Notes: generated by a model from the letters alone, not told the origin. A stretch of 64,000 bases of DNA from a virus (IMGVR_UViG_3300021431_004083:160001-224000); one strand, 5' to 3'. Shown: positions 9,198 to 58,215, counted from the first letter of the stretch. Program-made: numbers and translations.

Positions 9198-9260
9198 GAT
9201 ACAATCTCCTTTCCATTTTACTAAAAACATTATACAGCAAACTAAAAGATTAATCAAGAC

Positions 9261-9350
9261 AAAAAAAATGGACCAAGACAGGTCTCGGCCCAACAAAAAT
9301 CTATTCTCTGCAACCAATATCCATTTAGCAGAGATTACTTTATACCGTGT
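9261..9350 (-). ncRNA. Candidate small RNA or structured 3'UTR
   Basis: TATAAT at 9355-9360, hairpin TCTCTGC/GCAGAGA (9305-9334), terminator 9261-9292. Confidence 0.3.
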
Positions 9351-11543: not shown

Positions 11544-11606
11544 ATAACATACACACCTCAATATCATTCAACGAAAATTAATTTTTATATCATATTGTCA
11601 ATGTCC

Positions 11607-20962: not shown

Positions 20963-21080
20963 AAAAACCTTTCCTTTCTTTTTAAAAATCATTTCATATA
21001 TACAAAACCTCTCATAAAAATATAAGCCCACCATCAAAACAACAATAAGTTTCAACGGCAGGCTTAAACATCAAATTGTA

Positions 21081-25241: not shown

Positions 25242-26339
25242 TCAATAAGTGGCACTCCACACGACAGCTTCACCAAAATGATTATACGAAACAGATGTCT
25301 CATTTGACCACTCACGGCATTGAGCATACCATTCGTCCGCTTTTTCATTAAGTATATTTTCCGTAACCTGCGGAACGTGACGCTCGCCCCAAGAAAAACT
25401 ATAAGTCAATGAAGAGTAAGCGCATGCCGCAGCATCATGTGCGTCCGAAAGTGCTAAATTCTTATACCCCTCAAGACTGCTATTGTGACCGACACCTCTG
25501 ATGATAGCCTCAAGCTGCACATCGAGATCATACCAATGTCTATAACTGCTGCAAGTATTGCAAGTATCGGCAAATTTCATCAGCTCGATACCATTTGCTC
25601 CGGTCCAACCGAGTAAACCGATACCGAGACAATAATGCACTGCACCGTATTCATCAGTATAAGAAAAGGCGTCTTTGTTGATGTAAAAACCGTAACTGTC
25701 AAACAAACGTTCACAATACGCGTCAAGAGCGTCCTTATCCAAATTAGACAACCGCGCGTCATAACCGTTATATAACAACTGTTTTATATACGGGTCAAAC
25801 GCATAATTATCAACAGTACCGTCAGTTTTGCCGGATACTGTACTGATATAAGAACCCTCAATTGCGTTAGGAGACATTGACGAATTCATGTCCAAAACAG
25901 CTAACAAGCCCGCAATATGTATATCATCAAGACCGTAAGCCTTGAATGTATCATAACACAAACAAGCGTTTTCCATCAATGTAGACGGCTGTGAATCGTC
26001 GACAGTAGCTAAAGGAACAGGCTGACCGACATGGCAAAACGACGGAAGGTTCATATTCACAATGTGACGTTGAATAAATGTCGCGTCAATAACGGACAAA
26101 GTATCATCACCGTCAACATCACCGAGAACATACGCTGTTTCCAAAGACTCAACCAAACGAGAAACGTCAACGTCGATAGTCAATCGTTGTATAACGGTAA
26201 CGTCACAGGCGTCAACAGTACCGTCGTTTGTAACATCGCCCGAAAAACCATAACGAACAACTCTTGCCGACGACGGTAACACACAAAGAATAGATAATGC
26301 AACAACCATACACAAAAACAAACTAACAAACCGTTTCAT
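25242..26339 (-). CDS. Dockerin + phage-tail-lysozyme-like domain protein
   Basis: Dockerin repeats; YGLDDIHIAGLL...SSMSP, GIGLLGWTG, WYDLDVQL. Confidence 0.7.
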   Translation of the reverse strand: MKRFVSLFLCMVVALSILCVLPSSARVVRYGFSGDVTNDGTVDACDVTVIQRLTIDVDVSRLVESLETAYVLGDVDGDDTLSVIDATFIQRHIVNMNLPSFCHVGQPVPLATVDDSQPSTLMENACLCYDTFKAYGLDDIHIAGLLAVLDMNSSMSPNAIEGSYISTVSGKTDGTVDNYAFDPYIKQLLYNGYDARLSNLDKDALDAYCERLFDSYGFYINKDAFSYTDEYGAVHYCLGIGLLGWTGANGIELMKFADTCNTCSSYRHWYDLDVQLEAIIRGVGHNSSLEGYKNLALSDAHDAAACAYSSLTYSFSWGERHVPQVTENILNEKADEWYAQCREWSNETSVSYNHFGEAVVWSATY

Positions 26340-26376: not shown

Positions 26377-27603
26377 TCAACGAACAGAAATCTCAAAGTC
26401 CAACATCTCATTAACGCCCGAATAATGATAAGTCGGTGTCTCAGTATATCTATCGACGTCATTAACGGACAACGCTCTGCAATAATGATACTGCAACGGC
26501 GCATTTGCGTCACGAGAAACATCACGAATATTTGAACTGCACGAAACAATAAAAGACTTACGACCGGTACCATGGTCTCGATAACGAAGATACGCATCAA
26601 TAGATTTGAATAAAACACTATCATCACCGTTCTTTAATGCAGCCTCGACATCGTCACCATTATTCGTATAAAAATCACCATAAAACTGTGAACTATCATC
26701 ATCGGAACGATAACATGAATCAATAGAATCAAAATCAGAAACATCATATCCGAATTCATCCATAAATGATTTATAAGAACTCATATCAAATGAAAATACA
26801 GACGAACCATCACCGAAAAAAGACTTAGCATTACCGAAAGAAATAGGAGCATTAAAATCACACACAACAGCTTGCTGTCCGGCATATGCCTGACTGACCT
26901 GATTGTGATTGGACAGCCTCAAAGAATCTCCGTCACACCTAAAATACAAACTACTATATTGATGGCTGTCAACGGAAAAACAGAATAAATCTAAAGCATA
27001 AAGATTCTGCGACGTTGTGGCGGCGTATTCATCATCAGACAAAGTCTCATCAAAATAAGGACCTTCTTTTGAATCAACCTGCCATCCATTCGCCTCAGTC
27101 AAATGATACTTCTCAAAAAACCAATCGACAGAATCACGCGCGACTACATCATCACAAAAAGCACGCGCATCGTCGGCTGTCAATAAAAGACCGTTTATGT
27201 AAATAGTACCGTCACCAACTAAAGGCGTCGACAATTTATCAAAGCGTTCATTAGAACAACGCAACTCATCATTACCGTCATCACATTTGACAACAATCTG
27301 TTTTGTACCGATACCATAAGGAACAGTCAAACCCACAGTATAGCGCTGAATAAACGTAGCGTCAATAATGCTGACATAACCGTCACCATCAACGTCCGCG
27401 CCCAAGAAAGAAACAAAACTTCTTCCCATATTGACACAATACCGCTGAATAACAGTCACGTCAACAATATCCACATCGCCATCGGTATTAGCGTCGCCGA
27501 GAGGAACCGATACGTCGTTATCTGCCGCTGATGCGGGAACCACACCTACAGCACAAATGGTAAACAAAACGAAAACTAACAATAAACTAACAAACCTTCG
27601 CAT
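26377..27603 (-). CDS. Secreted N-terminal dockerin protein with unknown passenger
   Basis: GDANTDGDVDIVDVTVIQRY / ADVDGDGYVSIIDATFIQRY; passenger start similar to 4362..5606 (GD...NG...AD...C.D...D...F.EKY.L). Confidence 0.85.
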   Translation of the reverse strand: MRRFVSLLLVFVLFTICAVGVVPASAADNDVSVPLGDANTDGDVDIVDVTVIQRYCVNMGRSFVSFLGADVDGDGYVSIIDATFIQRYTVGLTVPYGIGTKQIVVKCDDGNDELRCSNERFDKLSTPLVGDGTIYINGLLLTADDARAFCDDVVARDSVDWFFEKYHLTEANGWQVDSKEGPYFDETLSDDEYAATTSQNLYALDLFCFSVDSHQYSSLYFRCDGDSLRLSNHNQVSQAYAGQQAVVCDFNAPISFGNAKSFFGDGSSVFSFDMSSYKSFMDEFGYDVSDFDSIDSCYRSDDDSSQFYGDFYTNNGDDVEAALKNGDDSVLFKSIDAYLRYRDHGTGRKSFIVSCSSNIRDVSRDANAPLQYHYCRALSVNDVDRYTETPTYHYSGVNEMLDFEISVR

Positions 27604-27668
27604 AAAAAACACACTCCTAAAATATTAATACACATATTATATGTCTATTGCGAAATATTGTCAACAAA

Positions 27669-28861: not shown

Positions 28862-29080
28862 TTATATATTTATACGATAACCGATAAACGAAGATAACCA
28901 CTTATAATTTTTATCCAACGCTCTTGCCGCTAACACATAACTGCCGTCTTGGGTAAAAATTTTACGATAAGACACGTTCACTTCAACCATATTTCTATTA
29001 ACTGATATCACAGGTACATCTTCATACTTCGTCCAACCGCCCTTTTCGTTCTTATCACAGAATAATAAAACCGAAATCAA
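28862..29080 (-). pseudogene. FN3-like domain fragment overlapping the end of the dockerin gene
   Basis: KNEKGGWTKYED...RALDKN..WLSSF resembles last domain of 14364..17156 (KNDKGSWTKLED...RALDKN..HLSYF); no clear RBS. Confidence 0.55.
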
Positions 29081-30209
29081 AAGGTGTATACATTCCTATA
29101 AGATGACGTTGAATCAACGCCGCGTCAACAATGGTCACATCACCGTCTCTATCAACATCCGCCGCAATTTTATTGAACGACGGAACAGACAAACCGACAA
29201 TATGACGTTGCAAGACAGTCACGTCGACCACAGTTAAACTACCATCGCCATCAACATCACCGATAGTGATATATTCAGGTATAGTGACCTTATAGCCTTG
29301 CACATCATAAAAACTCAAGAAAGTAGACTCATCATCGCTGACGCATCTGATTGAAAACTTATACGAACCTACGGTATCAGGATGATAGTCAAACTGCGTA
29401 TCTGCGGTACAACCGATACGCTCCCAACCGTTTTCTGTTTTCTCATAAATGGCATACTTAGGGGAACCCTTAACAGCCTTCCATGAAAAATGAATATCAT
29501 TACTGCCAAGCGTAAGCTCGACAGAATCAAACACAGGATTCGGCAAATACGTCAACTCACGACCTCGGATAAAGTCCGTATAAAAAAGAGTACCTTCAGA
29601 GTTCATACCTCGAACCGTCACATTGTGCGTACCATACGGAATATCGGAAGTGACAAACGACGTACCTGACGTAGCACCGATTTTCTGCCACACACCGTTA
29701 TCATCCTTGTAATAAATACGATATTTTGACACGTCCGCCAAAGGCTTCCAGACGAATTTGACACCATCGGCTGTAATCGACGTCACAAACTCAGGAGGCG
29801 TTTGCCAAACCATTATCGCAGCGTCGCTCAATCCTGTAACAGCTGTCTTATAGGCCGCATCCGTAACCTGAACAGCGAACTTATATGTGCCGGGATACGT
29901 CGGCTTATAAACATAAGACAACTTGTCAGTAAAAGCAATACGTGACCACTCTTCAATATCGTCCCTATACACAAAAAGCGCATAGCGAACAGGCGCGCTT
30001 GACGGTAAACCGTACGCGGCGACAGCACTCCATTTCACATGGATACCGGATGCGTCACTGCTGCTAAACGATACCTTGACAGGGTTCGAAACAACAGAAG
30101 AAGAAGACAGCTTTATCGGATGAATATCAGACTCAGCTGAAACAGAAACAGCCCCGATTGAACTCACGATCAGACATAAAACAAAAATAAACGATAAAAA
30201 ACGTTTCAC
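29055..30209 (-). CDS. Secreted protein with three FN3-like repeats and C-terminal dockerin
   Basis: Signal peptide; W...KY.IY....W..IG repeats; GDVDGDGSLTVVDVTVLQRHI / ADVDRDGDVTIVDAALIQRHL. Confidence 0.85.
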   Translation of the reverse strand: MKRFLSFIFVLCLIVSSIGAVSVSAESDIHPIKLSSSSVVSNPVKVSFSSSDASGIHVKWSAVAAYGLPSSAPVRYALFVYRDDIEEWSRIAFTDKLSYVYKPTYPGTYKFAVQVTDAAYKTAVTGLSDAAIMVWQTPPEFVTSITADGVKFVWKPLADVSKYRIYYKDDNGVWQKIGATSGTSFVTSDIPYGTHNVTVRGMNSEGTLFYTDFIRGRELTYLPNPVFDSVELTLGSNDIHFSWKAVKGSPKYAIYEKTENGWERIGCTADTQFDYHPDTVGSYKFSIRCVSDDESTFLSFYDVQGYKVTIPEYITIGDVDGDGSLTVVDVTVLQRHIVGLSVPSFNKIAADVDRDGDVTIVDAALIQRHLIGMYTPFDFGFIIL

Positions 30210-30415: not shown

Positions 30416-32323
30416 TTAATAATTAAGTTGATTATGAGACTGATTATTACCCGCATCAGGTACATCAGGAACCCTACGAGAATCTATATCAGCGGCAGGT
30501 TCGTCGAATTGATTCGGCTTCAAACCGAAAGCGTCAAGAAACCGCTGAACCTCTTTACTCTCACCGTAAAAATCCCGTTTCAAACCGTGACGAGACATCG
30601 TTTTCTTATAATCCTCTCTGAGACCTTTGGACATATGCTCACCGCCATGACAAGCCGCCTCGAAATACTTATCGATTTCCGATTTCGGCGTACCCGTAAG
30701 ACGGAACGCGACGCCCATCGCCACGCTGTTCTTCGCAGGGAAATTAGAGAAATACGAATACTTAATTGTCTGATTATACTTATCATCCAAGAAAGGTTTA
30801 TATAAATCTCTTTTACCCTCAGGCATATATTCTAATGCCTTCTCAAGATTCAAACAATCCATAACGGATTGGATATGATACGGAATATCCCCGTCGCTGA
30901 GATAATCCCGCGCGTCTTGCGAACCAGTATGCGTCTGACTTATCATCTCAGTATGATAATCACGCAACTTCGGTAAAGGATAATGCTCGAACCCAACAAA
31001 AGGCGTCTTGACAACAGCCGACGCATCGACTTCTGTATCCTTAATGTTTCTGTAATTCCTTATCAAATGCCCCTGATAAGTTAATTGCGTAGACGCCACT
31101 AAATTACCATCCGTACCCTTTACATAATTCCGCTGATAATCGTCCGCCAAATGACGAGACGGCGCCTCACCTGAAGGCATACGGGTAAATACAGTCATAT
31201 CGCAACCGGAATAACAAAACTTGTCTTCGTCACCGTTCTGATATGCGCCTGCTTTGAGCATAGCGTTCGTCTTCGGGTCATGCATGATGACACAACGAAC
31301 AGCCTTATCCTTTGTCCACGGCGCGTCACACTTAACGTCAATAGGACGGTCAAGTACTTTTTCGAAACCATTCGCTTCAAGAATCTTCATAGCATCGTCA
31401 TAAGACGTACCGCTATGTATCTCGCGTACAGCATAATCGACCTTTAAAGGCTTGATGTTCTTTATAATAAGCAACGACGCCTGTTCATAAGGCAAAAGAG
31501 CAGAATTCCCGTCAAAACTGGCGCCGGACGTCACTGCGAGGGGAGCACCGACCAAACCCTCTACAGGATTTAATGCTGTTTGTTGATTAACATAATCAAC
31601 CATTCTCACATCTCTTTGTTTGATACAAGAAAGGAGCGTCGCCATATCGTTATCACAATATTCATAGGCTGATACAAGTTGATCTCCGCGAATGTTCATG
31701 TCATCGAGTCCGAGAAGGCTCATACGACCGACCATCAAATGAGAACCGAGACCACCTGTTCTTCGCCACTCAGCCGCCGCTTCTGTATCAATCTCATACG
31801 CATGATACAAAATAGAGTCGTAAATCTTCGCGGCGTCCTCGTTACCCTCCGTCATCTGAGCACGAAACAAAACAGCATTATCAGGATACATAAGCTTTGC
31901 GCGCTGTATCGATTGTCTTGTATACGAGTCGGATTCGTATTTCATATCAGGAGAAGAAAGGAAATCCAACGTCTTGCACAATATCGTATCGATATTATCA
32001 TCAGGATATCGTGCAGCGGCAGACGTCGCCTTGTCAATCAATTCAGGACAATCGCTGTTCAACGCATAAAAAGCCTCACGTGTATCCCAACCGCCGAACT
32101 TATCAGGATACTCTTTATCGGCACCACGCGTACCCATAGCGTTGACGAAACGATAAAACTTCTGATAAGGAATATCCCCGTGCACGTCGGGACGGTCAAA
32201 AATGGAACCAATCGTTTCCATGAAAAACGGAAACCAAGAAGGGTTGCCTTCGCAAAACGCTTTCGCGGTTCCCGATTGTATTCTGTCTATCACTTCTTGT
32301 TGCTTTTTATCTAAACCCGGCAT
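30416..32323 (-). CDS. Hypothetical protein with duplicated N-terminal EGN domain and C-terminal RRVP tag
   Basis: 635-aa ORF, GAAAGGTG RBS. Confidence 0.8.
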   Translation of the reverse strand: MPGLDKKQQEVIDRIQSGTAKAFCEGNPSWFPFFMETIGSIFDRPDVHGDIPYQKFYRFVNAMGTRGADKEYPDKFGGWDTREAFYALNSDCPELIDKATSAAARYPDDNIDTILCKTLDFLSSPDMKYESDSYTRQSIQRAKLMYPDNAVLFRAQMTEGNEDAAKIYDSILYHAYEIDTEAAAEWRRTGGLGSHLMVGRMSLLGLDDMNIRGDQLVSAYEYCDNDMATLLSCIKQRDVRMVDYVNQQTALNPVEGLVGAPLAVTSGASFDGNSALLPYEQASLLIIKNIKPLKVDYAVREIHSGTSYDDAMKILEANGFEKVLDRPIDVKCDAPWTKDKAVRCVIMHDPKTNAMLKAGAYQNGDEDKFCYSGCDMTVFTRMPSGEAPSRHLADDYQRNYVKGTDGNLVASTQLTYQGHLIRNYRNIKDTEVDASAVVKTPFVGFEHYPLPKLRDYHTEMISQTHTGSQDARDYLSDGDIPYHIQSVMDCLNLEKALEYMPEGKRDLYKPFLDDKYNQTIKYSYFSNFPAKNSVAMGVAFRLTGTPKSEIDKYFEAACHGGEHMSKGLREDYKKTMSRHGLKRDFYGESKEVQRFLDAFGLKPNQFDEPAADIDSRRVPDVPDAGNNQSHNQLNY

Positions 32324-32344
32324 AACACACAACACCTTTCTTGA

Positions 32345-37822: not shown

Positions 37823-38395
37823 TCAAGGCTCAGGTTGATAATCAGGCGTATCAACATCAGGCGACGGTAAATCAGGAACCATACGAGCAAATGTTTTGTT
37901 CAAACCGTCCTCGACCGACTCATAACCCGGCTTCTCCCGATACTTGCCGACATCACCATCCTTTGTAATTTCACCCGCAAACCGTTCAACAGCGGCATCG
38001 TCAGCCTGATTCTCAGACTGATTGGCCAACTTACGACCATCGCTTACGATTTCCTTCTTGAGCGCCTCAAAACAAGCGTCTTTGATACGATTACGACCGG
38101 CTCGCGTATCGTGTTTCATAGCATCAAGCTTACCTTCGTTATATGCCTCAACAGCACGGGAATCAGACGAAAGCTCCTCTTCATAAGCAACACGCCTTTC
38201 GTCTCGGACGCCCTCGAACTCACCGACGCCCGCTTCTTGTCGCTTTCGCTCGTCGCGCAATTCATCGTAGTCCAAATGACTCGCGTCATACTGATGCTGT
38301 TCCTCCAATGAATGCTGACCTTTCGTATCGTTACCTGCAGCGCCGGTAACACGATTCGCTGTCACCCTTCGCAATACACGCTTCGCTTTACTCAT
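37823..38395 (-). CDS. Hypothetical charged protein carrying C-terminal RMVP tag
   Basis: GAAGGAG RBS. Confidence 0.75.
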   Translation of the reverse strand: MSKAKRVLRRVTANRVTGAAGNDTKGQHSLEEQHQYDASHLDYDELRDERKRQEAGVGEFEGVRDERRVAYEEELSSDSRAVEAYNEGKLDAMKHDTRAGRNRIKDACFEALKKEIVSDGRKLANQSENQADDAAVERFAGEITKDGDVGKYREKPGYESVEDGLNKTFARMVPDLPSPDVDTPDYQPEP

Positions 38396-38416
38396 AAACA
38401 ACACTCCTTCAAGATA

Positions 38417-40087
38417 TTACATTTGATAATCATCATCAAAATCATCAACATCTCTCACATCATCAAAGTCTATTGTGACATACCGACCATGAGGACTATC
38501 CGTATGGCTGTCTTCAACATCTATCGACTGATAAGCAGGCTCATTGACCTCACGAATTGGACGACTCGCTTCATAATCGATTTTGATATCAGGCTTTGCC
38601 TGAGACGAATCAAAACAATCATGGTCCTTCGCAAAATCAACAAGCGTCGCGTAATCGGCAACGAAATTAGGCACATAATTCTCAGGATAGGTGACAAACC
38701 CACGCACCTCGCCGACATGAAGCGGTCTCTCCCTGTACTTACAGGAATCGACATCAACGCCGAATTGCTCTTTGATAGCGTCGCGATTATTTTCCATATA
38801 ATCATTGAAAAACGCTTTATAATACCGCATCATTTGCGGATTATCAACAAACATATCGCAAACCCTTGATGACGGCTGTTCATTCGTCAACACGGCCTTT
38901 GTCTGTTGGACAGCATCGTATTCGCACAACGACTCAAGCGCGGCATACTTCGCAACAACGTTGATGTCCTCAGACAAGTAACCATCTTCCGACATTGACC
39001 ATCCGATATTCTGCGTACGCTTAACAAAAGCGTCATCAATACGAAGGTTCTTAAACTCCTCAACAAACTGAGAGGGGTCGTCCCACTCTCTCATATTGGC
39101 TCGCAAATAAGCCTTCATAACATCAAAATGTGTCGACAAGCCTTGCGGCGGTCTCGGATGGAATGTTCCCGTAAAATCCTCACCCGTCTCAGGGTCGAAA
39201 AACTCGCCATCCCAATGAAGCGTTGTCGAACCGTCAGGATTCGTCACACGACGATACTCGCTTTGCTGTGCCTCTCCTGTCGAAACCTCAGTAAACCAAG
39301 ACATCGTTTCCGGGTCGGCTTCAAACATTTGACCTGCAATAATACGAACCGAACGGTCAATATCCTCACGGGAAACGCCGTCGGCAGCTGCGGCTTCATA
39401 CAAAGCTTCATGCGCTTTCTCCCATGCCTCCTGTAAACCTTCGATATCAGCACCTTTCTTGCGCATCGCATGATATGTCGTTGTGGAAAACGCAATCGAC
39501 TGCATAGCCGCGCGTTCAGCGTCAAGAGGTCGCTGAAACTGAGAATAACGACGACGTCCACTAAACGAATCAAACGATGACTTATCATCGTTTTGTCTTG
39601 CTGCGCGTTGCTTCTTTCTCAAATCAGACACACCATCATGTTTAGCAAACAGCTTCGACACAGCGGTATACGACAAAAACCGACCGAGCGACTCGCCAAA
39701 GCCGCCTTGACGGCAACCGCGCATCATTAACGGAGCAAAGCACGCTAAACGCATTGACCTATCGATATAGTCATGCATAATTAATCGCTGCACATCATAG
39801 AAGCTCAAATGCAAATCGGCATCCTTCAGCGTCTTGTCTTTCTCGTATGACTTAACAAAATCACTGCAATAAGACTCCCAACGATGAGAATCCCAACCAA
39901 ATGTATCTGTCGCAAAATGCAAACTATCTATCAACTGATTGTTATTGATAGCACGGTCAATATTTCTGCGATGCTGCCAATAAACAGCGGAACGTTCGTC
40001 TTCCGTATTCATCGAAACACGACCGCTATTCGCGCTCCGTGAATTATTATTACCTGACGGTCCGTCTCTTCTTAATCGTCGCGCCAT
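38417..40087 (-). CDS. Hypothetical protein with acidic C-terminal tail
   Basis: 556-aa ORF, AAGGAG RBS, TTGATT/TATAAT promoter. Confidence 0.8.
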   Translation of the reverse strand: MARRLRRDGPSGNNNSRSANSGRVSMNTEDERSAVYWQHRRNIDRAINNNQLIDSLHFATDTFGWDSHRWESYCSDFVKSYEKDKTLKDADLHLSFYDVQRLIMHDYIDRSMRLACFAPLMMRGCRQGGFGESLGRFLSYTAVSKLFAKHDGVSDLRKKQRAARQNDDKSSFDSFSGRRRYSQFQRPLDAERAAMQSIAFSTTTYHAMRKKGADIEGLQEAWEKAHEALYEAAAADGVSREDIDRSVRIIAGQMFEADPETMSWFTEVSTGEAQQSEYRRVTNPDGSTTLHWDGEFFDPETGEDFTGTFHPRPPQGLSTHFDVMKAYLRANMREWDDPSQFVEEFKNLRIDDAFVKRTQNIGWSMSEDGYLSEDINVVAKYAALESLCEYDAVQQTKAVLTNEQPSSRVCDMFVDNPQMMRYYKAFFNDYMENNRDAIKEQFGVDVDSCKYRERPLHVGEVRGFVTYPENYVPNFVADYATLVDFAKDHDCFDSSQAKPDIKIDYEASRPIREVNEPAYQSIDVEDSHTDSPHGRYVTIDFDDVRDVDDFDDDYQM

Positions 40088-40371
40088 ACAAATCACTCTC
40101 CTTTATAGCTTCATTATAACATAAAACCATGATTAATCAAGAGAATTTTGACAAACAAAAAGTCCGATATTTATTCAACAATACTACCCTCAATCAATTC
40201 ACAGCGAACGAACCGTCGGCTATCATCTGAATAACCGTCATAAACACGCAAAGAATAAACCCCGCGTGCAAAAATACACGTGGGGTTCATCCTTAGGAGA
40301 AATAAAAATGAAAAAAGCTACGTATAGTAGGTATACTCAATTTGATTTCTTATTAAAAGAAGCACAACACC

Positions 40372-40881: not shown

Positions 40882-41166
40882 TTATTCGTTCAGCAACGTT
40901 TTCATCGCAACACTTGTCGTAAAAGCAATAGCCCTGTGCTCAGGTATCAAAATACGCTCCTGCGTCCTCGGGTCGGTGCCGTAACGGGGTTTACGGACAA
41001 CGATATCTAACTTGCCGATTTTCGGCAAAGTCAAATGCTCACGCTCAACAAGTGTGCTCGCCAATGTCTTGATGACAGCGTCATACGCCTTCTCAGCATA
41101 AACTCGCGAAAAGAACACATCAGGGTGCTCCTTCATCAAACGACTCACCATTTCCTGTTTCGACAA
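40882..41166 (-). CDS. HU/IHF-family DNA-binding protein
   Basis: MSKQEMV...LPKIGKLDIVVRKPRYGTDPRTQERILIP...F. Confidence 0.9.
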   Translation of the reverse strand: MSKQEMVSRLMKEHPDVFFSRVYAEKAYDAVIKTLASTLVEREHLTLPKIGKLDIVVRKPRYGTDPRTQERILIPEHRAIAFTTSVAMKTLLNE

Positions 41167-41509
41167 TACCGTTACCCCCTTCCGTCAACTTTTTACGAAT
41201 CTCCTCTTGGGGCTTCGCCGACGCAGCAAACTTCACAACATAATAATCCTTGATTTTACCCTGTTTACCGGACTGAAAATCCATCACGGCGTGTCCTTTT
41301 CGTTTATTCAAATAAAAACGACCGAAATCACGAAGCGATATCTCGTTGCCTTCTGACAACTCAAGGAAAATACGGTTAACGATCGCGTCATAAATACATG
41401 TCACAAGACGACTCAAACCCAAACGCTTCATAAAAGAAGACGGATAAAACGCCTCGACATCCTTTGTTACACGGCGGAGAAACTCCGACCGATTAATCCT
41501 CTGTCTCAT
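41120..41509 (-). CDS. Divergent HU/IHF-family DNA-binding protein
   Basis: INRSEF...LSEGNEISLRDFGRF...VVKFAAS. Confidence 0.8.
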   Translation of the reverse strand: MRQRINRSEFLRRVTKDVEAFYPSSFMKRLGLSRLVTCIYDAIVNRIFLELSEGNEISLRDFGRFYLNKRKGHAVMDFQSGKQGKIKDYYVVKFAASAKPQEEIRKKLTEGGNGIVETGNGESFDEGAP

Positions 41510-41618: not shown

Positions 41619-42380
41619 TCACACAATACCGAACTCAACCTCGGAAAAACGCTTAGTTACATCAAAGAACGAACGCGGCAGAGGTCGCAAGCGAGCAAGC
41701 CCCGCCGCCTCACGCGCTAATCGATCAGCAACAGCCATCCCGGAGTTCTTTGAACGGGGAACGCCCGCTTTCTCGGCTTGCTTGTTTGTCTTATGACTTG
41801 GGATATGCGTAAACCGAACAATAATATCATTCGCATCAAGCATATTAATACCGTCAAGATAACACTTGCGCAATGAATCGCTCGCTTTTCCGTTCCCCCG
41901 TGCCCAATCCTGACAAGCCATACAATCATGATGGATAGTGATGTCATGAATGTCAAGCTCCTTTACCCTATCAAATAGGGCAAGCATACCGTTCACCTCG
42001 GCTTCCAAAGAACCGCGCCTTTTATTATCAGCAAGCTGAGAGCCCGACAACACATAACGAGAACCGTTATAATCAATAAAACCGCCGTAACCCGATACAC
42101 CTGTTCTCTCATTGAAAGAACCGTCAATAAACGCGTAAGCGCGAGAGCTGTCGTCAATAAAAACATGACGACGTTCCGCGTCAATGATTTCTTCTATTGA
42201 CAGGCCGAAATAATCAGGCTTGCGTAAACAAAGAGCCGCCAACGAACGAGACGGACAGCCCTTGACACGAGAAACAGGCGCGTCTTTTATCTTATCATCG
42301 AACTCGTCATGAGACATAAAAACACCATGAAAAGTAGGCGTCAAAACCGCAAAATAAACAGGCGCCTTTGCTTTTGCCAT
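41619..42380 (-). CDS. rnhA: Ribonuclease HI with N-terminal hybrid-binding-like domain; C-terminal RPLP tag
   Basis: FIDGSF...GYGG, EAE, HHDC, HIPSH, ADRLAR; N-terminal YFAV...GVF. Confidence 0.85.
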   Translation of the reverse strand: MAKAKAPVYFAVLTPTFHGVFMSHDEFDDKIKDAPVSRVKGCPSRSLAALCLRKPDYFGLSIEEIIDAERRHVFIDDSSRAYAFIDGSFNERTGVSGYGGFIDYNGSRYVLSGSQLADNKRRGSLEAEVNGMLALFDRVKELDIHDITIHHDCMACQDWARGNGKASDSLRKCYLDGINMLDANDIIVRFTHIPSHKTNKQAEKAGVPRSKNSGMAVADRLAREAAGLARLRPLPRSFFDVTKRFSEVEFGIV

Positions 42381-42399
42381 CAAAAGGCAACCTCCTTTC

Positions 42400-43290
42400 T
42401 CAATCGTATTGCCTGTCCTGTTCAACAGGCGACGAGAAATCAAAAGAAGGCAAAGGTCTATCGGCACGGTCAAAGCCTGACACGCTGTCCTCCGTTTCAA
42501 CAGAAGGTTCATTGTCGATTTGAACAGACACTTCCGCCGACCGATACGATTGCAAAAACGTTTGATAATCCTCACCGAGAGACAAAATCAAATCATCCGA
42601 CACAGGCAAACCCACCGCCTTATCGGCATGAACGCGAGAAAATAAGGAATATTTCTCCAAGAACAATTGAGATTGCCAGTTCATATAATCAAAAAATAAT
42701 GAACGAGACGAACGCACCGTACCATCTACACGAGCGACATTATCAGGAGATGCTTTCGCCCGAAGAAAACCATCGAAAGAAATGCGCATCTCAGCCTCAG
42801 TTGAACGATAATGACGAACATCACGATTCACACAGCGGGTGAAAACATCAATAAAGGCCTGTCGGTTTTGTTCTGACGCAAACGAACCGTTCGTCACGAA
42901 CTGCGTCTCAAGCGCGTATAATCGATTTTTATCTTCTATCTCCTGTTCGGACACGACAGGTGCTTTCGGCTTGTGCAGCATATCCCCCAATTCACTGAGA
43001 TACTCACCAAACCCCGCGAATTTAGCAAACGAAGAAACATCTTCGATATCACGGTGCGTTATTGCGGAAACACGGGAACAAAGCGACATAAAAATATCCT
43101 CGGAAGAAAAGGAAACAGCCGACATGTCGCAATACTTATCAAAGTCGGTATGAATATTGACGCCTTCGATATCACTCAAATCGTCATAAAGCAAAGAAGC
43201 ATCCGTACGATTATTTCGGTTAAAATATAACGAACGATACAGCTCTCTAACGGCGTCGCCGTAATACCTGTCATAATCATCAACAGCCAT
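42400..43290 (-). CDS. Hypothetical protein carrying C-terminal RPLP tag
   Basis: GGGGGTG RBS, long ORF. Confidence 0.75.
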   Translation of the reverse strand: MAVDDYDRYYGDAVRELYRSLYFNRNNRTDASLLYDDLSDIEGVNIHTDFDKYCDMSAVSFSSEDIFMSLCSRVSAITHRDIEDVSSFAKFAGFGEYLSELGDMLHKPKAPVVSEQEIEDKNRLYALETQFVTNGSFASEQNRQAFIDVFTRCVNRDVRHYRSTEAEMRISFDGFLRAKASPDNVARVDGTVRSSRSLFFDYMNWQSQLFLEKYSLFSRVHADKAVGLPVSDDLILSLGEDYQTFLQSYRSAEVSVQIDNEPSVETEDSVSGFDRADRPLPSFDFSSPVEQDRQYD

Positions 43291-43310
43291 CAAAATCACC
43301 CCCGAATCGA

Positions 43311-44364: not shown

Positions 44365-47300
44365 TCAATAATTAGGAGCATCGCTCGCTTTGGACACACT
44401 ATGGAATCCCAAATCAAACGGAGTCTGTATCCTCGGTCTCTGACCGACACTTGCGGACGTTGCCTTCGCAGCAACAGCCTGTGTTTGATAGTCACCCTCA
44501 ACAGAACGACTCTGAACACGCTTATCCTTACTGTGGAGCTGATTGAACGCCTCAGGCGCGGCGTCATGGGCGATGTTCCAAAGAATCAACTCAGGCGCGT
44601 AGACATAGGCGACGTTACCGTCGTTCAACGCCTTATCGAACGTCTCCTTCGCCTTTGACGCATCTTCGATACCGGAAAGCTGTCGCTTTATTGCGTTGAC
44701 ATCGATACCGTAAATATTCAGGCTGCCGCCCGCTTCCGCGATATGAGAAGCAAAACTCTTCAGATTCGGATGATATGCCTGCTCCAGAATCTCAGAACGA
44801 TGCGTTGCCACACGCTCGATACTACCGATATACTTATTACCCTTATTATCGGTCAAAGTCATCGCGCGAGATATCAAATCCATATACTCAGGATTCACAG
44901 CAGCGTCACAACCAAAAGGACTCGTAGCGAAATCAGTAAACTGTTTCTTCCACTCTTCAGGAGACAAACGGTCCTTTGCTCTTGCTTCATCGGCTATCCA
45001 AATAGGGTTGCCGTCAGCATTGACAGACGTTTTGATTGCCTTGCCCGCCCACAACGCTTTCAACGGAGAATCCGATGTCAACACGTTATGTATCAAACGG
45101 CGAGCTTGCTCGACGTTGTGCTTTGCGCTCAAAGCAGACTGTGTCATGCCCTCAGATATATTGATACCGGCACGACACGCGGACTTACCCTCACAAGCAG
45201 ACGGTCCGTCAAAGAACGCACCGAGCGTTGCTGTAATGATATGCTGTGTCTGTTTGCCGTAAGAGCCTGTGAACTGGTTCTTAGCGGATAACGCTGTCTG
45301 AGTAGCGACACGGTCTTCCCATGTCGATAACGTATGACCTTCATCCTTGATGGTCGAATAATCAACCATCAGCTTACCGTCGGCGTCCTTACAAATATGA
45401 CCGTCTTCATCACGCTCCGCGTCAAACGTCACGCCGAGATAACGACAATACTTATCGAATGAATCGGGCTTACCCTTGGAACCGTTCTCGATACAAGCGG
45501 CAACAGAACGGAGATTATTCTCAAGACTATCGAACTGAATGACGTTGATACCGCAGTCAGCTTCCTGCGCGTCAATGTACCAATCATTGAACTCTTCGAA
45601 ATGCTTCTCGTTAGTCGCCATCCATTCAATATAATTCTCATCACGCAGATGATAATCATCATTGAACTTATCACGGAGAGCGGAAAGCCGCTCACCGAGC
45701 TCAGGATGCGCGTCGCACACAGCTTGTATATCAAGACCTGTATCATAATACAAATCGAATTTGCCGTCCTCGGCAACATAATGGGTATCAAGCGCGTTAT
45801 TAACAACGCCGAAATTGCGAATCAACTCATCAAGCGCCTGCTTACCCTTGATTTTAGTAATACCGATCGTATCACCGTCGAAATCACCCGCTAATGACTT
45901 CATCAAAAGCGGACTGACGCCGACGACATCCTCATAATCGGAATCGATATGAATCTTCGGAGCACGGATACCGCCGTCAGACAAAATCGGGTCACGCCAA
46001 ATCATCGCGTAATCGCCGTCAACAAAGCCCAAACGCTCCGCCATCTTGGCGCCCATCGTTATCTCTTCGATTTTGCAACTGGGGTTTGCCACCCAAACAA
46101 CAGTCGCCGAATTCGGCAACGGACGCGCGAGCGTCTGCTTGAACAAACCGTGCTTACTGTGGAATACTCTCGCTTCTAAATCATTTGTGATGGAGTTCCT
46201 GTACTCCTTCTCAATGCTTGCGCGAAGACTGTTCATCTTACCGAAATCATCGACAGAGCTCTGGTTCTCCTGCAACGCCTTATATTCCAACGAATTCATC
46301 AAAATACGCTGATAGGCATAGGTATAACCGTGATAAATATCAGGGCCGTCGCCGTTGCTATCGAAGCCTGAACGCAAATACGGAGGCAACAGCGGCAACA
46401 AATAGTTACCGTTGGGCTGACCGTCATCACCGTAAGATTCCATCAACGGCATACCGGACGGAAGCGTCATCTGGAACGGAACCTCGATAAAACCGCCGTA
46501 AGAATTCAACTGAGAGAACATCTCATTACGCATCGCTTCTTTATCAACAATACGCTCGCCGTTCTCATTAGTTGTATATTGCAGCTCGGGCAAACGAACG
46601 ACCTTACGTTCCTCGCCCTCGTGCTCGGAATAGCCTAAATGCGCGTTGCCGTATTCATCTACGTCAAAGCCGAGAGGAATCAAACTCTCACGCAAACGCT
46701 CAAATGAAGCGACGTCGGAGCCCTTGAACTCACGAACAATCGATTTCGCGTTGTTCGCAATCAAGGCTGCAGTCAGCTGCGCCGAAGCAGAACGTCCCTT
46801 ACCGGAATGAGCGTCATAAACATGAAGCTTGCTGTCAGCTGTCTGCTCATTGATAATGACATCCAAACGGCACAAAGCGCCGGGAATGTCCTTGCCGTCA
46901 ATATGCAAAACACCGCCGTCAGGCACATTACCTTTCGCGTAACCGTCCATCGCCTCACGTGTCGTATAACCGTCAAAACGACCGGGGAAGGTCTGCGGAG
47001 ACATAACAAAATCAAGCGACGGATTATCCTTGAAAAGCTTCCACGGCATATAATGACCGGAATACATAGCATTACGTTCAGGCACATCGGTATCGACGAT
47101 TCGAGCGGCAGTCGCCTTATTACCGCCGCCGACAGACGCCTTGTCACCGGACATAAGAGAACGCATCTCAATCGCGTCATCGAGAGAATCGAGCAGCTTA
47201 TCATCATCAAAGCCGAGCTGTGTCAACACAGCATTGACGCCCTCGACGCCGTTTTCCTCAGCAAAACGCTTCGAAAAAAGCACGGAGTCATTCATCGTAT

Positions 47301-50300
47301 AACAACCGATAGTCGCAAACGCGCCGACAGCAGGAGCGACACGACGACACGAGAGCAAATTGCTTGCGCGCATCATATCACGGTCCGTCGGAGAATACTG
47401 AGCGTAAGGCATATGATTACGCACCAAGCGTGTTTCCTTCAATTCCTCGTCATCCGTCGGAATAATCAAATGACCGCTGTTTTGTCCGCGCTTCTGAAGA
47501 ACGGCGCCGTCAGAAAGACAGCGATTCAAACCCATAGACGAATTGACGCTCGTAACGGTCTTTGAGGTATAACCGTTATCGGTCAGAATAGAAATATCTT
47601 CAAAACCGGAACGTACAAACGGGTCTGTGATATTCAAATCATTCGCAAGCCCCTTACGGTCGGATAACGCGTACAAGGAAGCCGCGCGAATAGTAGAATT
47701 GCCATATATGCTCGGCAAATGAAAACGACGAGACAATGTATAAATCTTATCGTCGAAAAGCTCAGGAGACATACCGGTACGCTTATTCTTCTCAAGAATA
47801 TTGAGCGGAAAACGCTCGCTGCGCAACATACGATATGTACGATTGAGAGCGGTATTGCTCTCGAAATCAGGCACACCCTTTACGATATCCGAACGAACAC
47901 GAGCTGTAATGAAATCATGAAGAACATCGGCATAACCGCGCAGACATAAACGCTCCTCGTATGTCTTATTCTCGCCGGGCTTTTGCGGAAGAATATCCGC
48001 CTCATAGTCAGGTACAAACAAATAATTATCGTCGTGATTGAATTTCGTCTCAATCAAACCCATACCATCAGGCAAAAAGACTTGCCCGATAGTACCTTCG
48101 ACAGGCTCATAAGAGATATTCGTGCCTGTCATCGACTTATTCAAATCATCAACAACGATACGACGTGCTTTATATTTGATGATACCATTATCATCAATAA
48201 AGGCATCCTTTGATAAATCAAAATCACAACCTGTCGCCGTGATAGCGTTCGTAAGCGAATCACAAACAGATTGAATGATTTCCTTCTGCGGACCATCCTG
48301 ATAAGAATCAAGCAGGTTCTTCAGCGAAGTCTGTGAAGCTTCATCAAACTGAACAAGACCTTCGCAAAAAGCATTGAACGAAGAACCCTCGCCTTTGAAC
48401 TTATCACGAGACACATTCGCGGCGAGAAAAGCAGCGGATAACGCTCTATGCGAAATATCGCCTGTCGTATTGGTGGTCGTCATATAGCGAGACACCAATA
48501 ACGGATTGATAAGACAATCATCCGGCGAATTATAATAACCGATGCGCTCCGGCATAAACTGATTGGAAAGCTGACTCATCAAGCGTTCCTTGGTCAGCTC
48601 ACGGTCATAAGAGGAACCATCATCCTCTTGTGCCTGACGAATCAATGCCCAGAACGACTGCTGCACAGAAGAGATGACGCTGTCTTCATCGAAAACAGGC
48701 GTATAATCCATACCATGCGTATCAGCCTCATCCAACAACCTGTCAATATCGACAGAAGAAGCGAACATCAGCTTCGCGGAATCAACAGCTTCCATAATGA
48801 ACTGATTTGCTTCCTCAGCTGAACTGAAGGAAATATTGCGATATCGACGCTTATTGTCGACAATCATGTGTACCTTATTCGTCGTAGACATCTGCGCGGG
48901 CTTATTGCTCGTCGCATAAGAAATCGGCAAACCGTCAATGCCAAGCGCTTGGTTACGGTTATTACGACGAACAAAACAACGATTCGGCAACGGCTTCACA
49001 TCGGCTCTGAACATCCGATGCCCCTGCTTTGTCGTATGATAAAAACTGTTCTGACGGACAGACGGAATATTCATCCTCGCCTGACGGCTGTACATCGTTG
49101 TGTTATAAGAACCAAACTCACCGAGATTCGCGACATCGGGAGTCACACCGACGGCATAATCAACAACAGCTAACCTGTCCTCAATCGGAATCATATATTC
49201 CGCGCGAACCTCACCCTGCCATTGACGACCGTCTTTACCTGTGCGAACCTTCGGTATTTTCTTACCATCCTCCAAACGGTAACGACCGTCTTGACCCAAT
49301 TCATAATCAGGAACCGTTTGATCGGTACTTGCGTAATAAACAAGACCGCCATTATAACAACGACCGATATTATTCTCATAATTCGAAGGACTCGTGATAC
49401 GAATGTGTGTCTTATTGGCTGTAACAGCGTTAACATGTCCCGCGGCATAACTCGTATCAGGCTCAATCGTATAAGAAACACCCTTATCATTCAAATGATG
49501 CAAAATAGCCACACTCGAACGAATCGCTGTTTCAGACATAGGAAACCCGGAGCTTTTTACCCATCTGTCAATATTCTCAATCGACTCGGGATTCTTCTGC
49601 GGAACATACCGGTGCAGATACGAAAGACCATAAAGGTCATTCTCACTGCGAAGAACCATAGGCGCCGTATCACTGTTCGGGGTAACAACGCGACCGTCTT
49701 CTCCCAACATCGAATCAGCGTCGGGCGACGCATAAAGAGGAATTCTCTCATAAAAAGCGTTCATATCGGTATCCATATAAGGGATGCCGGAAGCATTACA
49801 CAACGACATACCGCCGTTTCCGTTATCCTTATCACCGACAGGCGCATAAACAGCAGAACCATTGGATGACAAAGCCCATTCACACATGAAAAAGCGTGAA
49901 TCATAAGGAGACAACGGAGCAAAACCACGAGCGAACGACTGACGAACATCACCGGCTATCTTAGACAGACCGTCATTAGACAAACAGTCAAGGTCATCAC
50001 GACCTGTCTTGGCTTTGATAAACGCACGAAGAGCGTTAGCGAAATTACTTGCCGTGATATTATCCATATCAATCGGCATAGTCTTTCGCATATTAAACGC
50101 TGTCAGCGTATCGTCAGAGAAATAAGACATACCTGTTGTAATAAACTCTTCATGCAGCTGACGAGCGTAAGACAAAGGAATACCTCGCTCTCCTTCGGCC
50201 TGTAATGTCTCGTTTAATGAAAACATCGCCTCACGAAAAACGGATTCGTTCAACAGACGACGTACGAAAGGTGAATAGGTAGACTGACCGCTGTAAACAG

Positions 50301-50406
50301 CGTTCCTACCGGAAACAACACCTCTGTCGGTACGGAGCTGATTACGATAGCAACGCTCGCTCGCTTCGTTACGTCTTTGTATCGGGTCGGCTAACAACAC
50401 ACTCAT
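44365..50406 (-). CDS. Single-chain two-barrel DNA-dependent RNA polymerase (beta and beta' cores fused)
   Basis: Beta-like: YTMNDSVLFSKRF, GDKASVGGGNKAT, DFVMSPQTFPGRFD, TADSKLH; beta'-like: WRDPIL...LAGDFDGD (DFDGD at 45871-45885); GGAGG RBS before MSVLL. Confidence 0.9.
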   Translation of the reverse strand: MSVLLADPIQRRNEASERCYRNQLRTDRGVVSGRNAVYSGQSTYSPFVRRLLNESVFREAMFSLNETLQAEGERGIPLSYARQLHEEFITTGMSYFSDDTLTAFNMRKTMPIDMDNITASNFANALRAFIKAKTGRDDLDCLSNDGLSKIAGDVRQSFARGFAPLSPYDSRFFMCEWALSSNGSAVYAPVGDKDNGNGGMSLCNASGIPYMDTDMNAFYERIPLYASPDADSMLGEDGRVVTPNSDTAPMVLRSENDLYGLSYLHRYVPQKNPESIENIDRWVKSSGFPMSETAIRSSVAILHHLNDKGVSYTIEPDTSYAAGHVNAVTANKTHIRITSPSNYENNIGRCYNGGLVYYASTDQTVPDYELGQDGRYRLEDGKKIPKVRTGKDGRQWQGEVRAEYMIPIEDRLAVVDYAVGVTPDVANLGEFGSYNTTMYSRQARMNIPSVRQNSFYHTTKQGHRMFRADVKPLPNRCFVRRNNRNQALGIDGLPISYATSNKPAQMSTTNKVHMIVDNKRRYRNISFSSAEEANQFIMEAVDSAKLMFASSVDIDRLLDEADTHGMDYTPVFDEDSVISSVQQSFWALIRQAQEDDGSSYDRELTKERLMSQLSNQFMPERIGYYNSPDDCLINPLLVSRYMTTTNTTGDISHRALSAAFLAANVSRDKFKGEGSSFNAFCEGLVQFDEASQTSLKNLLDSYQDGPQKEIIQSVCDSLTNAITATGCDFDLSKDAFIDDNGIIKYKARRIVVDDLNKSMTGTNISYEPVEGTIGQVFLPDGMGLIETKFNHDDNYLFVPDYEADILPQKPGENKTYEERLCLRGYADVLHDFITARVRSDIVKGVPDFESNTALNRTYRMLRSERFPLNILEKNKRTGMSPELFDDKIYTLSRRFHLPSIYGNSTIRAASLYALSDRKGLANDLNITDPFVRSGFEDISILTDNGYTSKTVTSVNSSMGLNRCLSDGAVLQKRGQNSGHLIIPTDDEELKETRLVRNHMPYAQYSPTDRDMMRASNLLSCRRVAPAVGAFATIGCYTMNDSVLFSKRFAEENGVEGVNAVLTQLGFDDDKLLDSLDDAIEMRSLMSGDKASVGGGNKATAARIVDTDVPERNAMYSGHYMPWKLFKDNPSLDFVMSPQTFPGRFDGYTTREAMDGYAKGNVPDGGVLHIDGKDIPGALCRLDVIINEQTADSKLHVYDAHSGKGRSASAQLTAALIANNAKSIVREFKGSDVASFERLRESLIPLGFDVDEYGNAHLGYSEHEGEERKVVRLPELQYTTNENGERIVDKEAMRNEMFSQLNSYGGFIEVPFQMTLPSGMPLMESYGDDGQPNGNYLLPLLPPYLRSGFDSNGDGPDIYHGYTYAYQRILMNSLEYKALQENQSSVDDFGKMNSLRASIEKEYRNSITNDLEARVFHSKHGLFKQTLARPLPNSATVVWVANPSCKIEEITMGAKMAERLGFVDGDYAMIWRDPILSDGGIRAPKIHIDSDYEDVVGVSPLLMKSLAGDFDGDTIGITKIKGKQALDELIRNFGVVNNALDTHYVAEDGKFDLYYDTGLDIQAVCDAHPELGERLSALRDKFNDDYHLRDENYIEWMATNEKHFEEFNDWYIDAQEADCGINVIQFDSLENNLRSVAACIENGSKGKPDSFDKYCRYLGVTFDAERDEDGHICKDADGKLMVDYSTIKDEGHTLSTWEDRVATQTALSAKNQFTGSYGKQTQHIITATLGAFFDGPSACEGKSACRAGINISEGMTQSALSAKHNVEQARRLIHNVLTSDSPLKALWAGKAIKTSVNADGNPIWIADEARAKDRLSPEEWKKQFTDFATSPFGCDAAVNPEYMDLISRAMTLTDNKGNKYIGSIERVATHRSEILEQAYHPNLKSFASHIAEAGGSLNIYGIDVNAIKRQLSGIEDASKAKETFDKALNDGNVAYVYAPELILWNIAHDAAPEAFNQLHSKDKRVQSRSVEGDYQTQAVAAKATSASVGQRPRIQTPFDLGFHSVSKASDAPNY

Positions 50407-50430: not shown

Positions 50431-50542
50431 AAAAAAGCAGAAACGACAGTGCATTTCTGCTTCGAAACCCGTATTCAATCACAAAGCAAAAATCCGTCTC
50501 TGTCTCTGCTTGTATTATAAACCCGAAATATAAATTTGTCAA
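50431..50542 (-). promoter_or_regulatory. RNAP gene promoter and leader with premature terminator (attenuator-like)
   Basis: TTGACA-N17-TATAAT (50542-50514); leader hairpin AAGCAGAAATG...CGTTTCTGCTT + TTTT (50462-50431) upstream of RBS. Confidence 0.7.
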
Positions 50543-51670: not shown

Positions 51671-51886
51671 TTAACCACCGAACTGATAATCATCCGAAAA
51701 CTCATATTCCTCCGGCAGGTTGCGCGGTAAACGACGAGCCCGCTGACGAGGATTCGCTTCGACATCATGACGAATACGAGCGTTTCCGTCATCAAGCGAT
51801 TTTCTCGAATCAAAACCACGAGATAACGCTTCATCCTCGCTGATATAACGACCGACAGACGCGTCATAAAAACGGTTATTCGACAT
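51671..51886 (-). CDS. Small protein carrying C-terminal RRLP tag
   Basis: AAAGGTGG RBS; own TTGTAA/TATACT promoter. Confidence 0.7.
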   Translation of the reverse strand: MSNNRFYDASVGRYISEDEALSRGFDSRKSLDDGNARIRHDVEANPRQRARRLPRNLPEEYEFSDDYQFGG

Positions 51887-58177: not shown

Positions 58178-58215
58178 GCACGGCGAGCGAATCAGAAAAA
58201 AGAGAGGTGACATAT

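Follow-up and report, generated by a model that had tools for sequence, protein, structure and literature searches.

A predicted single-chain, two-barrel RNA polymerase encoded by an apparently conjugative megaplasmid

What would an RNA polymerase with both halves of its active site on one chain be doing in an element that is catalogued as a virus? The question is raised by a gene in IMGVR_UViG_3300021431_004083:160001-224000, the 64,000-nucleotide stretch of DNA that we analysed and that we refer to as the window (positions are window positions unless they are given as genome positions). This gene, a coding sequence for a putative single-chain beta::beta' RNA polymerase, lies at 44365..50406 on the minus strand, with its ATG at 50406 and its stop codon at 44365-44367. 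It encodes 2013 amino acids without internal stops, and the open reading frame (ORF) matches its own genome record at 100%, unbroken. We consider it likely that the product is an intact single-chain DNA-dependent RNA polymerase of the two-barrel type, probably active, and that it belongs to the NCgl1702-like class. This judgement is of the whole explanation set out below, including a role in conjugation or establishment that we infer from the company the gene keeps.

An initial annotation of the window had described one ORF of about 2010 residues with diverged beta motifs followed by the catalytic motif of beta'. We located all of the quoted motifs, in order, in the 2013-residue ORF. Those of the beta type are PYAQYSPTDRDMM (residues 1000-1012, with DRDMM of the beta-like module at 1008-1012), YTMNDSVLFS (1036-1045, with ND at 1039-1040), GDKASVGGGNK (1087-1097; 47116..47148, minus strand), and MSPQTFPGRFD (1135-1145, with GRFD at 1142-1145). 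GDKASVGGGNK aligns to GDKLANRHGNKG of Thermus beta and contains K1089 and K1097, the two invariant active-site lysines of a beta-type barrel. The beta-like module also has GKGRSASAQL (1202-1211). The beta' barrel follows with RDPIL (1471-1475) and GDFDGD (1507-1512; 45871..45888, minus strand), in which D1508, D1510, and D1512 are the predicted Mg-binding catalytic aspartates. In a 58-sequence family alignment (A1), R1009, M1012, D1040, D1088, K1089, N1096, K1097, R1143, R1471, P1473, D1508, D1510, G1511, and D1512 are all invariant. Because these catalytic positions do not vary across the 58 family members, the quoted motifs are not chance matches.

Profiles relate the two halves of this core to the two large subunits of cellular RNA polymerase. 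The A1 profile matched bacterial beta' with an E value of 4e-21, aligning to beta' 236-490 (lid, switch 2, and catalytic barrel) and 649-803 (funnel and bridge-helix region), and it placed DFDGD (1508-1512) on NADFDGD of beta'. A profile of the first half (A4) matched 54 PDB chains, all of them RNA polymerase chains of the beta/Rpb2 type (best E value of 5.7e-8). Between them, the family profiles had no matches in the PDB other than beta and beta' chains. Four motifs were collinear in that comparison: fDRqqM with DDANRALMG of beta, wtfdDgvvvs with YNFEDAIVIS, GDKlsdlhGNKGvis with GDKLANRHGNKGVVA, and GRkasaqlawal with GQRFGEMEVWAL. D1040 aligned with the acidic residue in FEDAIV of Thermus beta, and K1089 and K1097 with GDKLANRHGNKG. 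Matches to the single sequence were confined to approximately 70-90 residues around DFDGD. They included the PHROGs family "RNA polymerase beta subunit" (E value of 1e-3) and, in the PDB, the P23-45 tape-measure polymerase gp96 (E value of 8e-4 over approximately 70 residues) and AR9 beta' (E value of 7e-3). Some relatives of the protein have precomputed PF00623 and PF00562 matches together.

One feature of the beta-like half bears on its classification. Only 46 residues separate D1040 from G1087, compared with 134 over the same interval of Thermus beta (11 profile positions span those 134). Therefore, the flap, or sandwich-barrel hybrid motif (SBHM), insert is absent from the beta barrel. This absence is the trait by which Iyer and Aravind separate the NCGL1702-like and YonO/RNA-dependent RNA polymerase (RdRP) enzymes (PMC7824862).

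The predicted structure agrees with the profiles. An AlphaFold2 model of residues 860-1900, made with A1, had a predicted local distance difference test score (pLDDT) of 89.8 and a predicted template modelling score of 0.88, and both double-psi beta-barrels are present in it. The beta-like catalytic module, assigned by fold and by the A4 profile, covers residues 860-1267 (46606..47829, minus strand) and contains the first barrel. The beta'-like module covers residues 1251-1900 (44707..46656, minus strand) and has a lid/switch-2 region, the catalytic double-psi beta-barrel, a funnel, a putative bridge helix, and a trigger-loop-like hairpin. In the model, the putative bridge helix is a 32-residue helix (approximately 1696-1727), after which comes a helical hairpin with TQSALSAKH (1755-1763). 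This sequence appears to resemble the TQLTMRTFH of the E. coli beta' trigger loop.

Structure searches divided the core in the same way. All of the top 50 matches in a Foldseek search of the PDB were bacterial beta' chains. An exhaustive VIA-align search assigned model residues 392-1041 to largest subunits and model residues 1-408 to second-largest subunits. For model residues 392-1041, human RNA polymerase (Pol) I A190 was best (Z of 15.1, 510 residues aligned), M. tuberculosis beta' had a Z of 12.3 (504 aligned), and Pol IV NRPD1, archaeal A', and vaccinia Rpo147 matched as well. For model residues 1-408, the matches were the phiKZ non-virion RNA polymerase (nvRNAP) chain C (Z of 15.0), the beta subunit of the plastid-encoded polymerase (PEP) (14.2), the AR9 nvRNAP (14.1), and Xanthomonas beta (14.0), along with Pol I A135 and the Pol III second-largest subunit. 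Single-chain enzymes scored lower: QDE-1 had a Z of 12.7 (452 residues, across the whole core), P74-26 gp62 10.9, RDR2 10.4, P23-45 gp96 10.2, and crAss phi14:2 gp66 7.0. Bare double-psi barrels (Cdc48-N and designed DPBB proteins) matched model residues 573-660. The order that the initial annotation had proposed, beta-like and then beta'-like, was borne out by these comparisons with the two large subunits, both in profiles (E values of 5.7e-8 and 4e-21) and in fold (Z up to 15.1).

About 900 residues at the N terminus had been left without assignment in the initial annotation. This stands for residues 1-700, which match no known fold, but residues 704-898 look like a beta protrusion. Family-wide conservation within the first 900 residues falls in three blocks, and an N-terminal model had a pLDDT of 80.6. 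Residues 704-898 (47713..48297, minus strand) matched the N-terminal (protrusion/B1) domain of beta/Rpb2 with Z of 5-7. Over approximately 155 aligned residues, these matches were PEP beta (7.2), Xanthomonas beta (7.0), and the AR9 nvRNAP (6.3), with vaccinia Rpo132, African swine fever virus, and Pol I/III/IV second subunits in addition. Because the matches to second-largest subunits recur in this region, the beta-like half begins near residue 700. The family-specific region before it (residues 1-700; 48307..50406, minus strand) has conserved blocks at approximately 50-370, 500-595, and 600-700. It had no convincing structural match in Foldseek PDB, wide VIA, or Atlas searches, in which its single domains had not been folded alone. 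For that reason, these failed matches do not establish a new fold. That residues 1-700 replace sigma or alpha is pure conjecture.

Is this then a member of the NCgl1702-like class? The initial annotation had placed it there as an element-encoded single chain, and the profiles, the fold, the missing flap/SBHM insert, and the mobile-element context all support that assignment, which rests on the defining features of the class. The protein has the hallmarks of the two-barrel superfamily, which are a beta'-type barrel with R-x-P and a D-x-D-G-D loop and a beta-type barrel with two lysines and an acidic residue. It also has the features of the class: one chain of approximately 1800-2500 residues, a beta-like half before a beta'-like half, no SBHM/flap insert, and carriage by plasmids or integrated mobile elements. 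An exhaustive HMMER search seeded with residues 860-1900 gave 388 clusters at 50% identity, of which 283 were at E<=1e-30. Their proteins are nearly all 1800-2500 residues long, with the matched core at approximately 750-1750. An orthologue (P0003) is 63% identical, collinear, and 2003 residues long, and it is found on 92-282 kb contigs. The class was reportedly described from sequence in a 2003 study. It is still called enigmatic (PMC2919709, PMC7824862). The polymerase is a further member of a class that was already predicted from sequence. What we add is a trimmed N-terminal boundary, sequence-level proof of the beta half, a detached position on an intron-rich megaplasmid, and a C-terminal tag found across the family.

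The gene has the expression signals of a bacterial host. A sigma-70-type promoter, TTGACA-17-TATAAT, lies 5' of it at 50514..50542 (minus strand) and matches the consensus at 12 of 12 positions; the promoter is predicted from this match. From 5' to 3' on the minus strand, the order is a strong terminator of the preceding gene (50599-50561), the promoter, a leader hairpin followed by a T-run that is a possible attenuator (50434..50463), a GGAGG Shine-Dalgarno sequence (50420-50416), and the ATG. A mechanical ORF list gives a longer version that starts at a TTG at 50478. However, that TTG falls within the 5' leader, and the GGAGG is 9 nucleotides before the ATG, so we take the ATG at 50406 as the true start codon.

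What kind of element carries the gene? The record to which the window belongs is listed in IMG/VR as a "virus" of 251,549 bp and has an 89-bp terminal repeat; it is labelled 100% complete with direct terminal repeats. The element encodes a MobL relaxase, Topo III, M23/lysozyme and CHAP wall hydrolases, SpaA/Cna_B pilins, a sortase, and a ParM-like actin, and it also has a type IV coupling protein gene. Pfam searches of it found no terminase and no HK97-type capsid. Because of the relaxase, coupling protein, Topo III, pilins, and ParM-like actin, and because capsid and terminase matches are missing, its gene content identifies it, despite the IMG/VR label, as a circular conjugative megaplasmid of approximately 251 kb and not a phage. 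The 89-bp "terminal repeat" is consistent with overlap in the assembly of a circle. Searches of the element found no second polymerase (PF00623, PF00562, or PF00940), no VirB4-type ATPase (PF12846), and no sigma region 2; the sole sigma-related hit was a region-4 protein at genome 10077-10820.

The coupling protein gene itself is in at least 10 collinear pieces spread over 25 kb (genome 33597-58641), with intron-type ORFs between them. Together these pieces cover residues 3-1271 of an intact 1276-residue relative. A ClpB-like double AAA+ ATPase is encoded at genome 61020-64553 (minus strand) and has a LAGLIDADG/Hom_end-type insert, probably an intein. Relatives of this ATPase are found upstream of the coupling protein in actinobacterial elements.

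A 99%-identical 10.8-kb contig is present in a Eubacteriales metagenome-assembled genome (MAG), and many of the plasmid's proteins have dockerins. This suggests that the host is one of the cellulosome-bearing Clostridia of the gut or rumen. The proteins with type I dockerins are encoded at 4362-5606, 25242-26339, 26377-27612, and 29055-30209, and one of them has a phage-tail-lysozyme domain. Two large BspA-type leucine-rich-repeat proteins are encoded at 18515-22667. The plasmid seems to load proteins onto the host cellulosome or surface.

Relatives of the polymerase are also found beside conjugation genes. We clustered the neighbourhoods of 80 genomic loci, which are mostly from Actinomycetota, with some from Clostridia and one from a Muribaculaceae MAG. 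A PF02534 coupling protein of approximately 1350 residues is directly upstream on the same strand in 73 of the 80. Directly downstream of the polymerase, 66 of them encode a protein of approximately 450-730 residues without an assigned family. A membrane protein 5' of the coupling protein (50/80), HU (44/80), and DNA ligase (8/80) recur as well. The polymerase core is encoded by 27 IMG/VR contigs (67-230 kb; L100-L126), nearly all with the order coupling protein and then polymerase. Because this conjugation gene order is found there too, the viral label of these 27 contigs is doubtful. tblastn found relatives on Streptomyces, Rhodococcus, Gordonia, Staphylococcus, and Lactococcus plasmids (the actinobacterial ones, including Gordonia and Rhodococcus, at an E value of 1e-100), and relatives are also present in actinobacterial chromosomes beside coupling proteins. 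For example, the S. capitis plasmid pAYP1020 has the polymerase gene between a gene for a 1286-residue coupling protein and those for a topoisomerase and a wall hydrolase, and in a Streptomyces plasmid it is directly 3' of the coupling protein gene. There was no tblastn match in 50,697 phage records. In 400 other genomes sampled from the order of one actinobacterial carrier, the gene was found in none at E<=1e-30. This distribution is sporadic, as expected of a mobile gene.

Our element keeps part of this neighbourhood 3' of the polymerase. A homologue of the conserved downstream partner, 559 residues long, is encoded at 38417..40096 (minus strand). It had no match in PDB sequences, Pfam, NCBIfam, or Atlas, and it is a candidate accessory subunit or specificity factor. 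A gene for an HU/IHF-like DNA-binding protein, a recurrent neighbour of the polymerase, is at 41120..41509 (minus strand). An RNase H-like (RVT_3) protein with the C-terminal tag described below (RPLP plus 18 residues) is encoded at 41619..42575 (minus strand).

What might the enzyme do? At the level of sequence and model, our analysis shows a complete predicted two-barrel active site on one chain, host-type expression signals, and coupling-protein linkage in relatives. We propose that the enzyme would be the element's own transcription machine and would work during conjugation and establishment. It would make RNA on element DNA, as early transcripts and/or primers, independently of the host polymerase and its sigma factors. 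Template recognition might be supplied by the N-terminal region and/or the conserved downstream partner.

A shared C-terminal tag offers one way in which such an enzyme could reach a recipient cell. In the element, 11 ORFs match [RK]-x-[LMVI]-P at 12-21 residues from the end (3.5 expected). Nine of these 11 have R-[RPM]-[LMV]-P at 15-19 residues from the end, and eight of the nine are in the polymerase arm. They are at window positions 9009-9317, 10926-11567, 30416-32335, 37823-38404, 41619-42575, 42400-43299, 51671-51886, and 59908-60570, with the ninth at genome 50316-51008. The tagged tails are rich in acidic residues, in most cases with an aromatic residue at or close to the end, and the proteins are otherwise unrelated. 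The polymerase family has the tag too, in 14 of 162 proteins (1.7 expected), with the LPDVP-like form in 8 (0.57 expected). The orthologue P0003 ends in ...STLPDVP...PDF. The polymerase in the window ends in QRPRIQTP-FDLGF...APNY (residues 1985-2013; 44368..44454, minus strand), a degenerate copy of the R-x-[LMV]-P, acidic, and aromatic pattern. At an orthologous locus (L003), 5 of 23 ORFs are tagged, including an RNase_T (DnaQ-like) exonuclease and an RNase H-like protein. In actinobacterial loci, another acidic-aromatic ending (such as DFEL or DLQFE) is common to the polymerase, its downstream partner, and two small neighbours. Judged from the sequences, a sortase signal is an unlikely meaning because the tag is carried by cytoplasmic nucleic-acid enzymes and the tail lacks a membrane anchor.

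Our tentative suggestion, which we hold to be possible more than probable, is that the tag marks conjugation cargo, so that the polymerase and approximately ten other element proteins, including the RNase H-like protein, would be exported by the coupling protein into the recipient. The element's Clp-like ATPase might unfold them first. The polymerase and the nucleic-acid enzymes would then act on the incoming single strand as a transcription and priming kit. Co-transfer into recipients is attractive, and it is our leading sub-hypothesis, but it is unproven. A complex prediction that paired the final coupling-protein exon with the C-terminal 80 residues of the polymerase scored 0.00 and had no controls, so it counts neither way.

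Several observations weigh against our overall explanation. The second acidic position of beta is N1039-D1040 here, whereas the family consensus is D-D. Pfam and NCBIfam scans of the polymerase did not recognize it, and a literature search found no biochemical study of any family member. Its gene is approximately 75 kb around the circle from the coupling protein gene, so the linkage argument is borrowed from relatives. Finally, no promoter motif peculiar to the enzyme was found among upstream regions. The only enriched motifs there were a CRISPR-like hairpin repeat, with a TATAAT-bearing leader, and ribosome-binding sites.

The hairpins of this repeat are approximately 40 nucleotides long and bipartite (AATCTCTGCT...GCAGAG), and they occur singly or in runs with spacers of 19-29 nucleotides at genome positions of approximately 233.6-251.5 kb. 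Each run is preceded by a TCAGTCAATCATATAAT leader. Within that region, the family is located at L014 9580-10713 and 17551-18396 and at L015 5217-7466, upstream of approximately 15 plus-strand genes. We considered whether these hairpins could be N4-like single-strand promoters. This idea was dropped because, with a repeat-spacer layout beside a Cas12a-like gene, a CRISPR-like nature is no less likely. They may be CRISPR-like mini-arrays for the element's Cas12a-like gene, or they may be a promoter or 5' untranslated region element.

Other explanations of the polymerase have to be weighed. Perhaps it is only a resident transcriptase, one that stays in the producing cell and, like the non-virion polymerase of a phage, transcribes part of the megaplasmid. 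The tag might then be a degron or a docking site for the Clp-like ATPase, for example. We regard this as doubtful. It would account for the gene's own consensus host-type promoter, from which the enzyme could be made in any plasmid-bearing cell, for the ClpB-like AAA+ ATPase in the conserved coupling-protein module, and for the degenerate state of the tag on this polymerase. However, near-obligate adjacency to the coupling protein across phyla is hard to explain for a housekeeping enzyme, and the tag is enriched on the C termini of the polymerase family (14 observed, 1.7 expected).

We think it unlikely that the enzyme is instead a primer synthase, although this would give several of its neighbours a place. 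It would take the place of a primase and lay down RNA primers, either on the transferred strand or at the vegetative origin, and its partners would be the tagged RNase H-like protein, HU, a D5-type helicase, and, in some relatives, an ATP-dependent ligase. RNase H-like and HU-like genes are directly downstream, DNA ligase is found in 8 of the 80 related loci, and the transferred primases TraC1 and SogL are an established precedent (PMC5512222). Also, 8 kb from the polymerase gene, at 58207-59817 (plus strand), is a gene for a D5_N/DUF5906/Pox_D5 superfamily-3 helicase without a recognizable primase domain. Even so, a predicted full bridge helix, a trigger-loop-like hairpin, a lid/switch region, and a length of approximately 2000 residues are better suited to a processive transcriptase. 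One enzyme could fill both roles.

A polymerase that uses RNA or single-stranded DNA as a template, like QDE-1 and other RdRPs, would make antisense or double-stranded RNA against competing elements and not messenger RNA. The flap/SBHM insert is missing here as it is in the RdRP/YonO group (PMC7824862), and QDE-1 aligns over the whole core (Z of 12.7, 452 residues). However, DNA-dependent multisubunit enzymes give the best matches in both fold and sequence, and RNA-silencing partners are not visible in the element, which makes this very improbable. Least credible of all is a jumbo-phage virion RNA polymerase, packaged and ejected like crAss gp66, N4 gp50, or the P23-45 tape-measure fusion: the viral label, the 89-bp terminal repeat, and weak matches to P23-45 gp96 (E value of 8e-4; Z of 10.2) and crAss phi14:2 gp66 (Z of 7.0) point that way, but terminase and HK97-type capsid matches were not found by Pfam, 50,697 phage records gave no match, a relaxase, coupling protein, pilins, sortase, Topo III, and ParM-like actin are present, the repeat fits an assembly overlap, and relatives are on plasmids or in actinobacterial chromosomes beside coupling proteins.

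The explanation that we prefer is an element-encoded transcriptase that would work in conjugation and establishment. Transcription universally depends on two-barrel RNA polymerases, for which single-chain versions are natural minimal models. The class to which this one is assigned is large (388 clusters, in Actinomycetota and Bacillota), tied to an unusual Gram-positive conjugation module, and absent from Pfam and NCBIfam. If active, the enzyme would be a self-contained polymerase of approximately 230 kDa with a predicted bridge helix and a trigger-loop-like element and without flap, sigma, alpha, or omega. If it is also delivered, establishment of the plasmid would not depend on the recipient RNA polymerase recognizing plasmid promoters. 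This would bear on host range and on how large plasmids survive their first minutes in a new cell.

The comparison with known systems places the enzyme as follows. It shares with the NCgl1702-like class a single chain of approximately 2000 residues, a beta-like half that comes first, the lack of SBHM/flap, and carriage by mobile elements. As points of difference, this copy is on a Clostridia megaplasmid, is detached from the coupling-protein gene, and is encoded among proteins with a common C-terminal tag. Its likeness to RpoB/RpoC extends to collinear DRxxM, an ED-type acidic pair, GDK..GNKG, GxR..WAL-like, RxP, and DFDGD motifs, a funnel GAKGS-type motif, a putative bridge helix, and the fold (Z of 12-14 over 270-500 residues). 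However, it is fused and less than half their combined size, has no flap, and has an unrelated 700-residue N terminus, and alpha, omega, and sigma partners were not detected for it. The YonO/QDE-1 group has a minimal core of approximately 800-1000 residues. QDE-1 (Z of 12.7) and RDR2 (10.4) scored below the multisubunit enzymes (14-15), and unlike a bare RdRP core, the polymerase here keeps a long putative bridge helix and the helical hairpin that follows it.

Among phage enzymes, the phiKZ and AR9 nvRNAPs (PDB 7OGP and 7S00) are the best structural matches of the beta-type barrel module (Z of 15.0 and 14.1), with a weak sequence match at the beta' barrel. Theirs are phage-borne and split over four or five polypeptides, whereas ours is a single uninterrupted ORF on a plasmid. 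For the proposed movement between cells, there is precedent in plasmid enzymes that travel with DNA and act first in the recipient. TraC1 of RP4 and SogL of R64 are conjugatively transferred primases (PMC5512222), and F-plasmid proteins travel through the type IV secretion system (PMC8406263). However, these have unrelated folds (Toprim primases, single-stranded DNA-binding protein, PsiB, and others), and an RNA polymerase is unreported among transferred proteins (PMC5512222, PMC8406263). In a 2017 survey, RNA polymerase modules in delivered proteins were reported from N4-like phages only (PMC5512222). The crAss-like phi14:2 gp66 (6VR4) and P23-45 gp96 (8H2M/8H2N) likewise have both barrels on one chain and a large extra N-terminal mass, and the proposed logic, an enzyme entering a new cell with DNA, is alike. 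Their matches are weaker (Z of 7.0 and 10.2; E value of 8e-4), and their genes lie among virion genes, whereas the gene here is in the company of conjugation genes. If co-transfer does take place, the delivered polymerase would be to conjugation what a virion RNA polymerase is to a phage.

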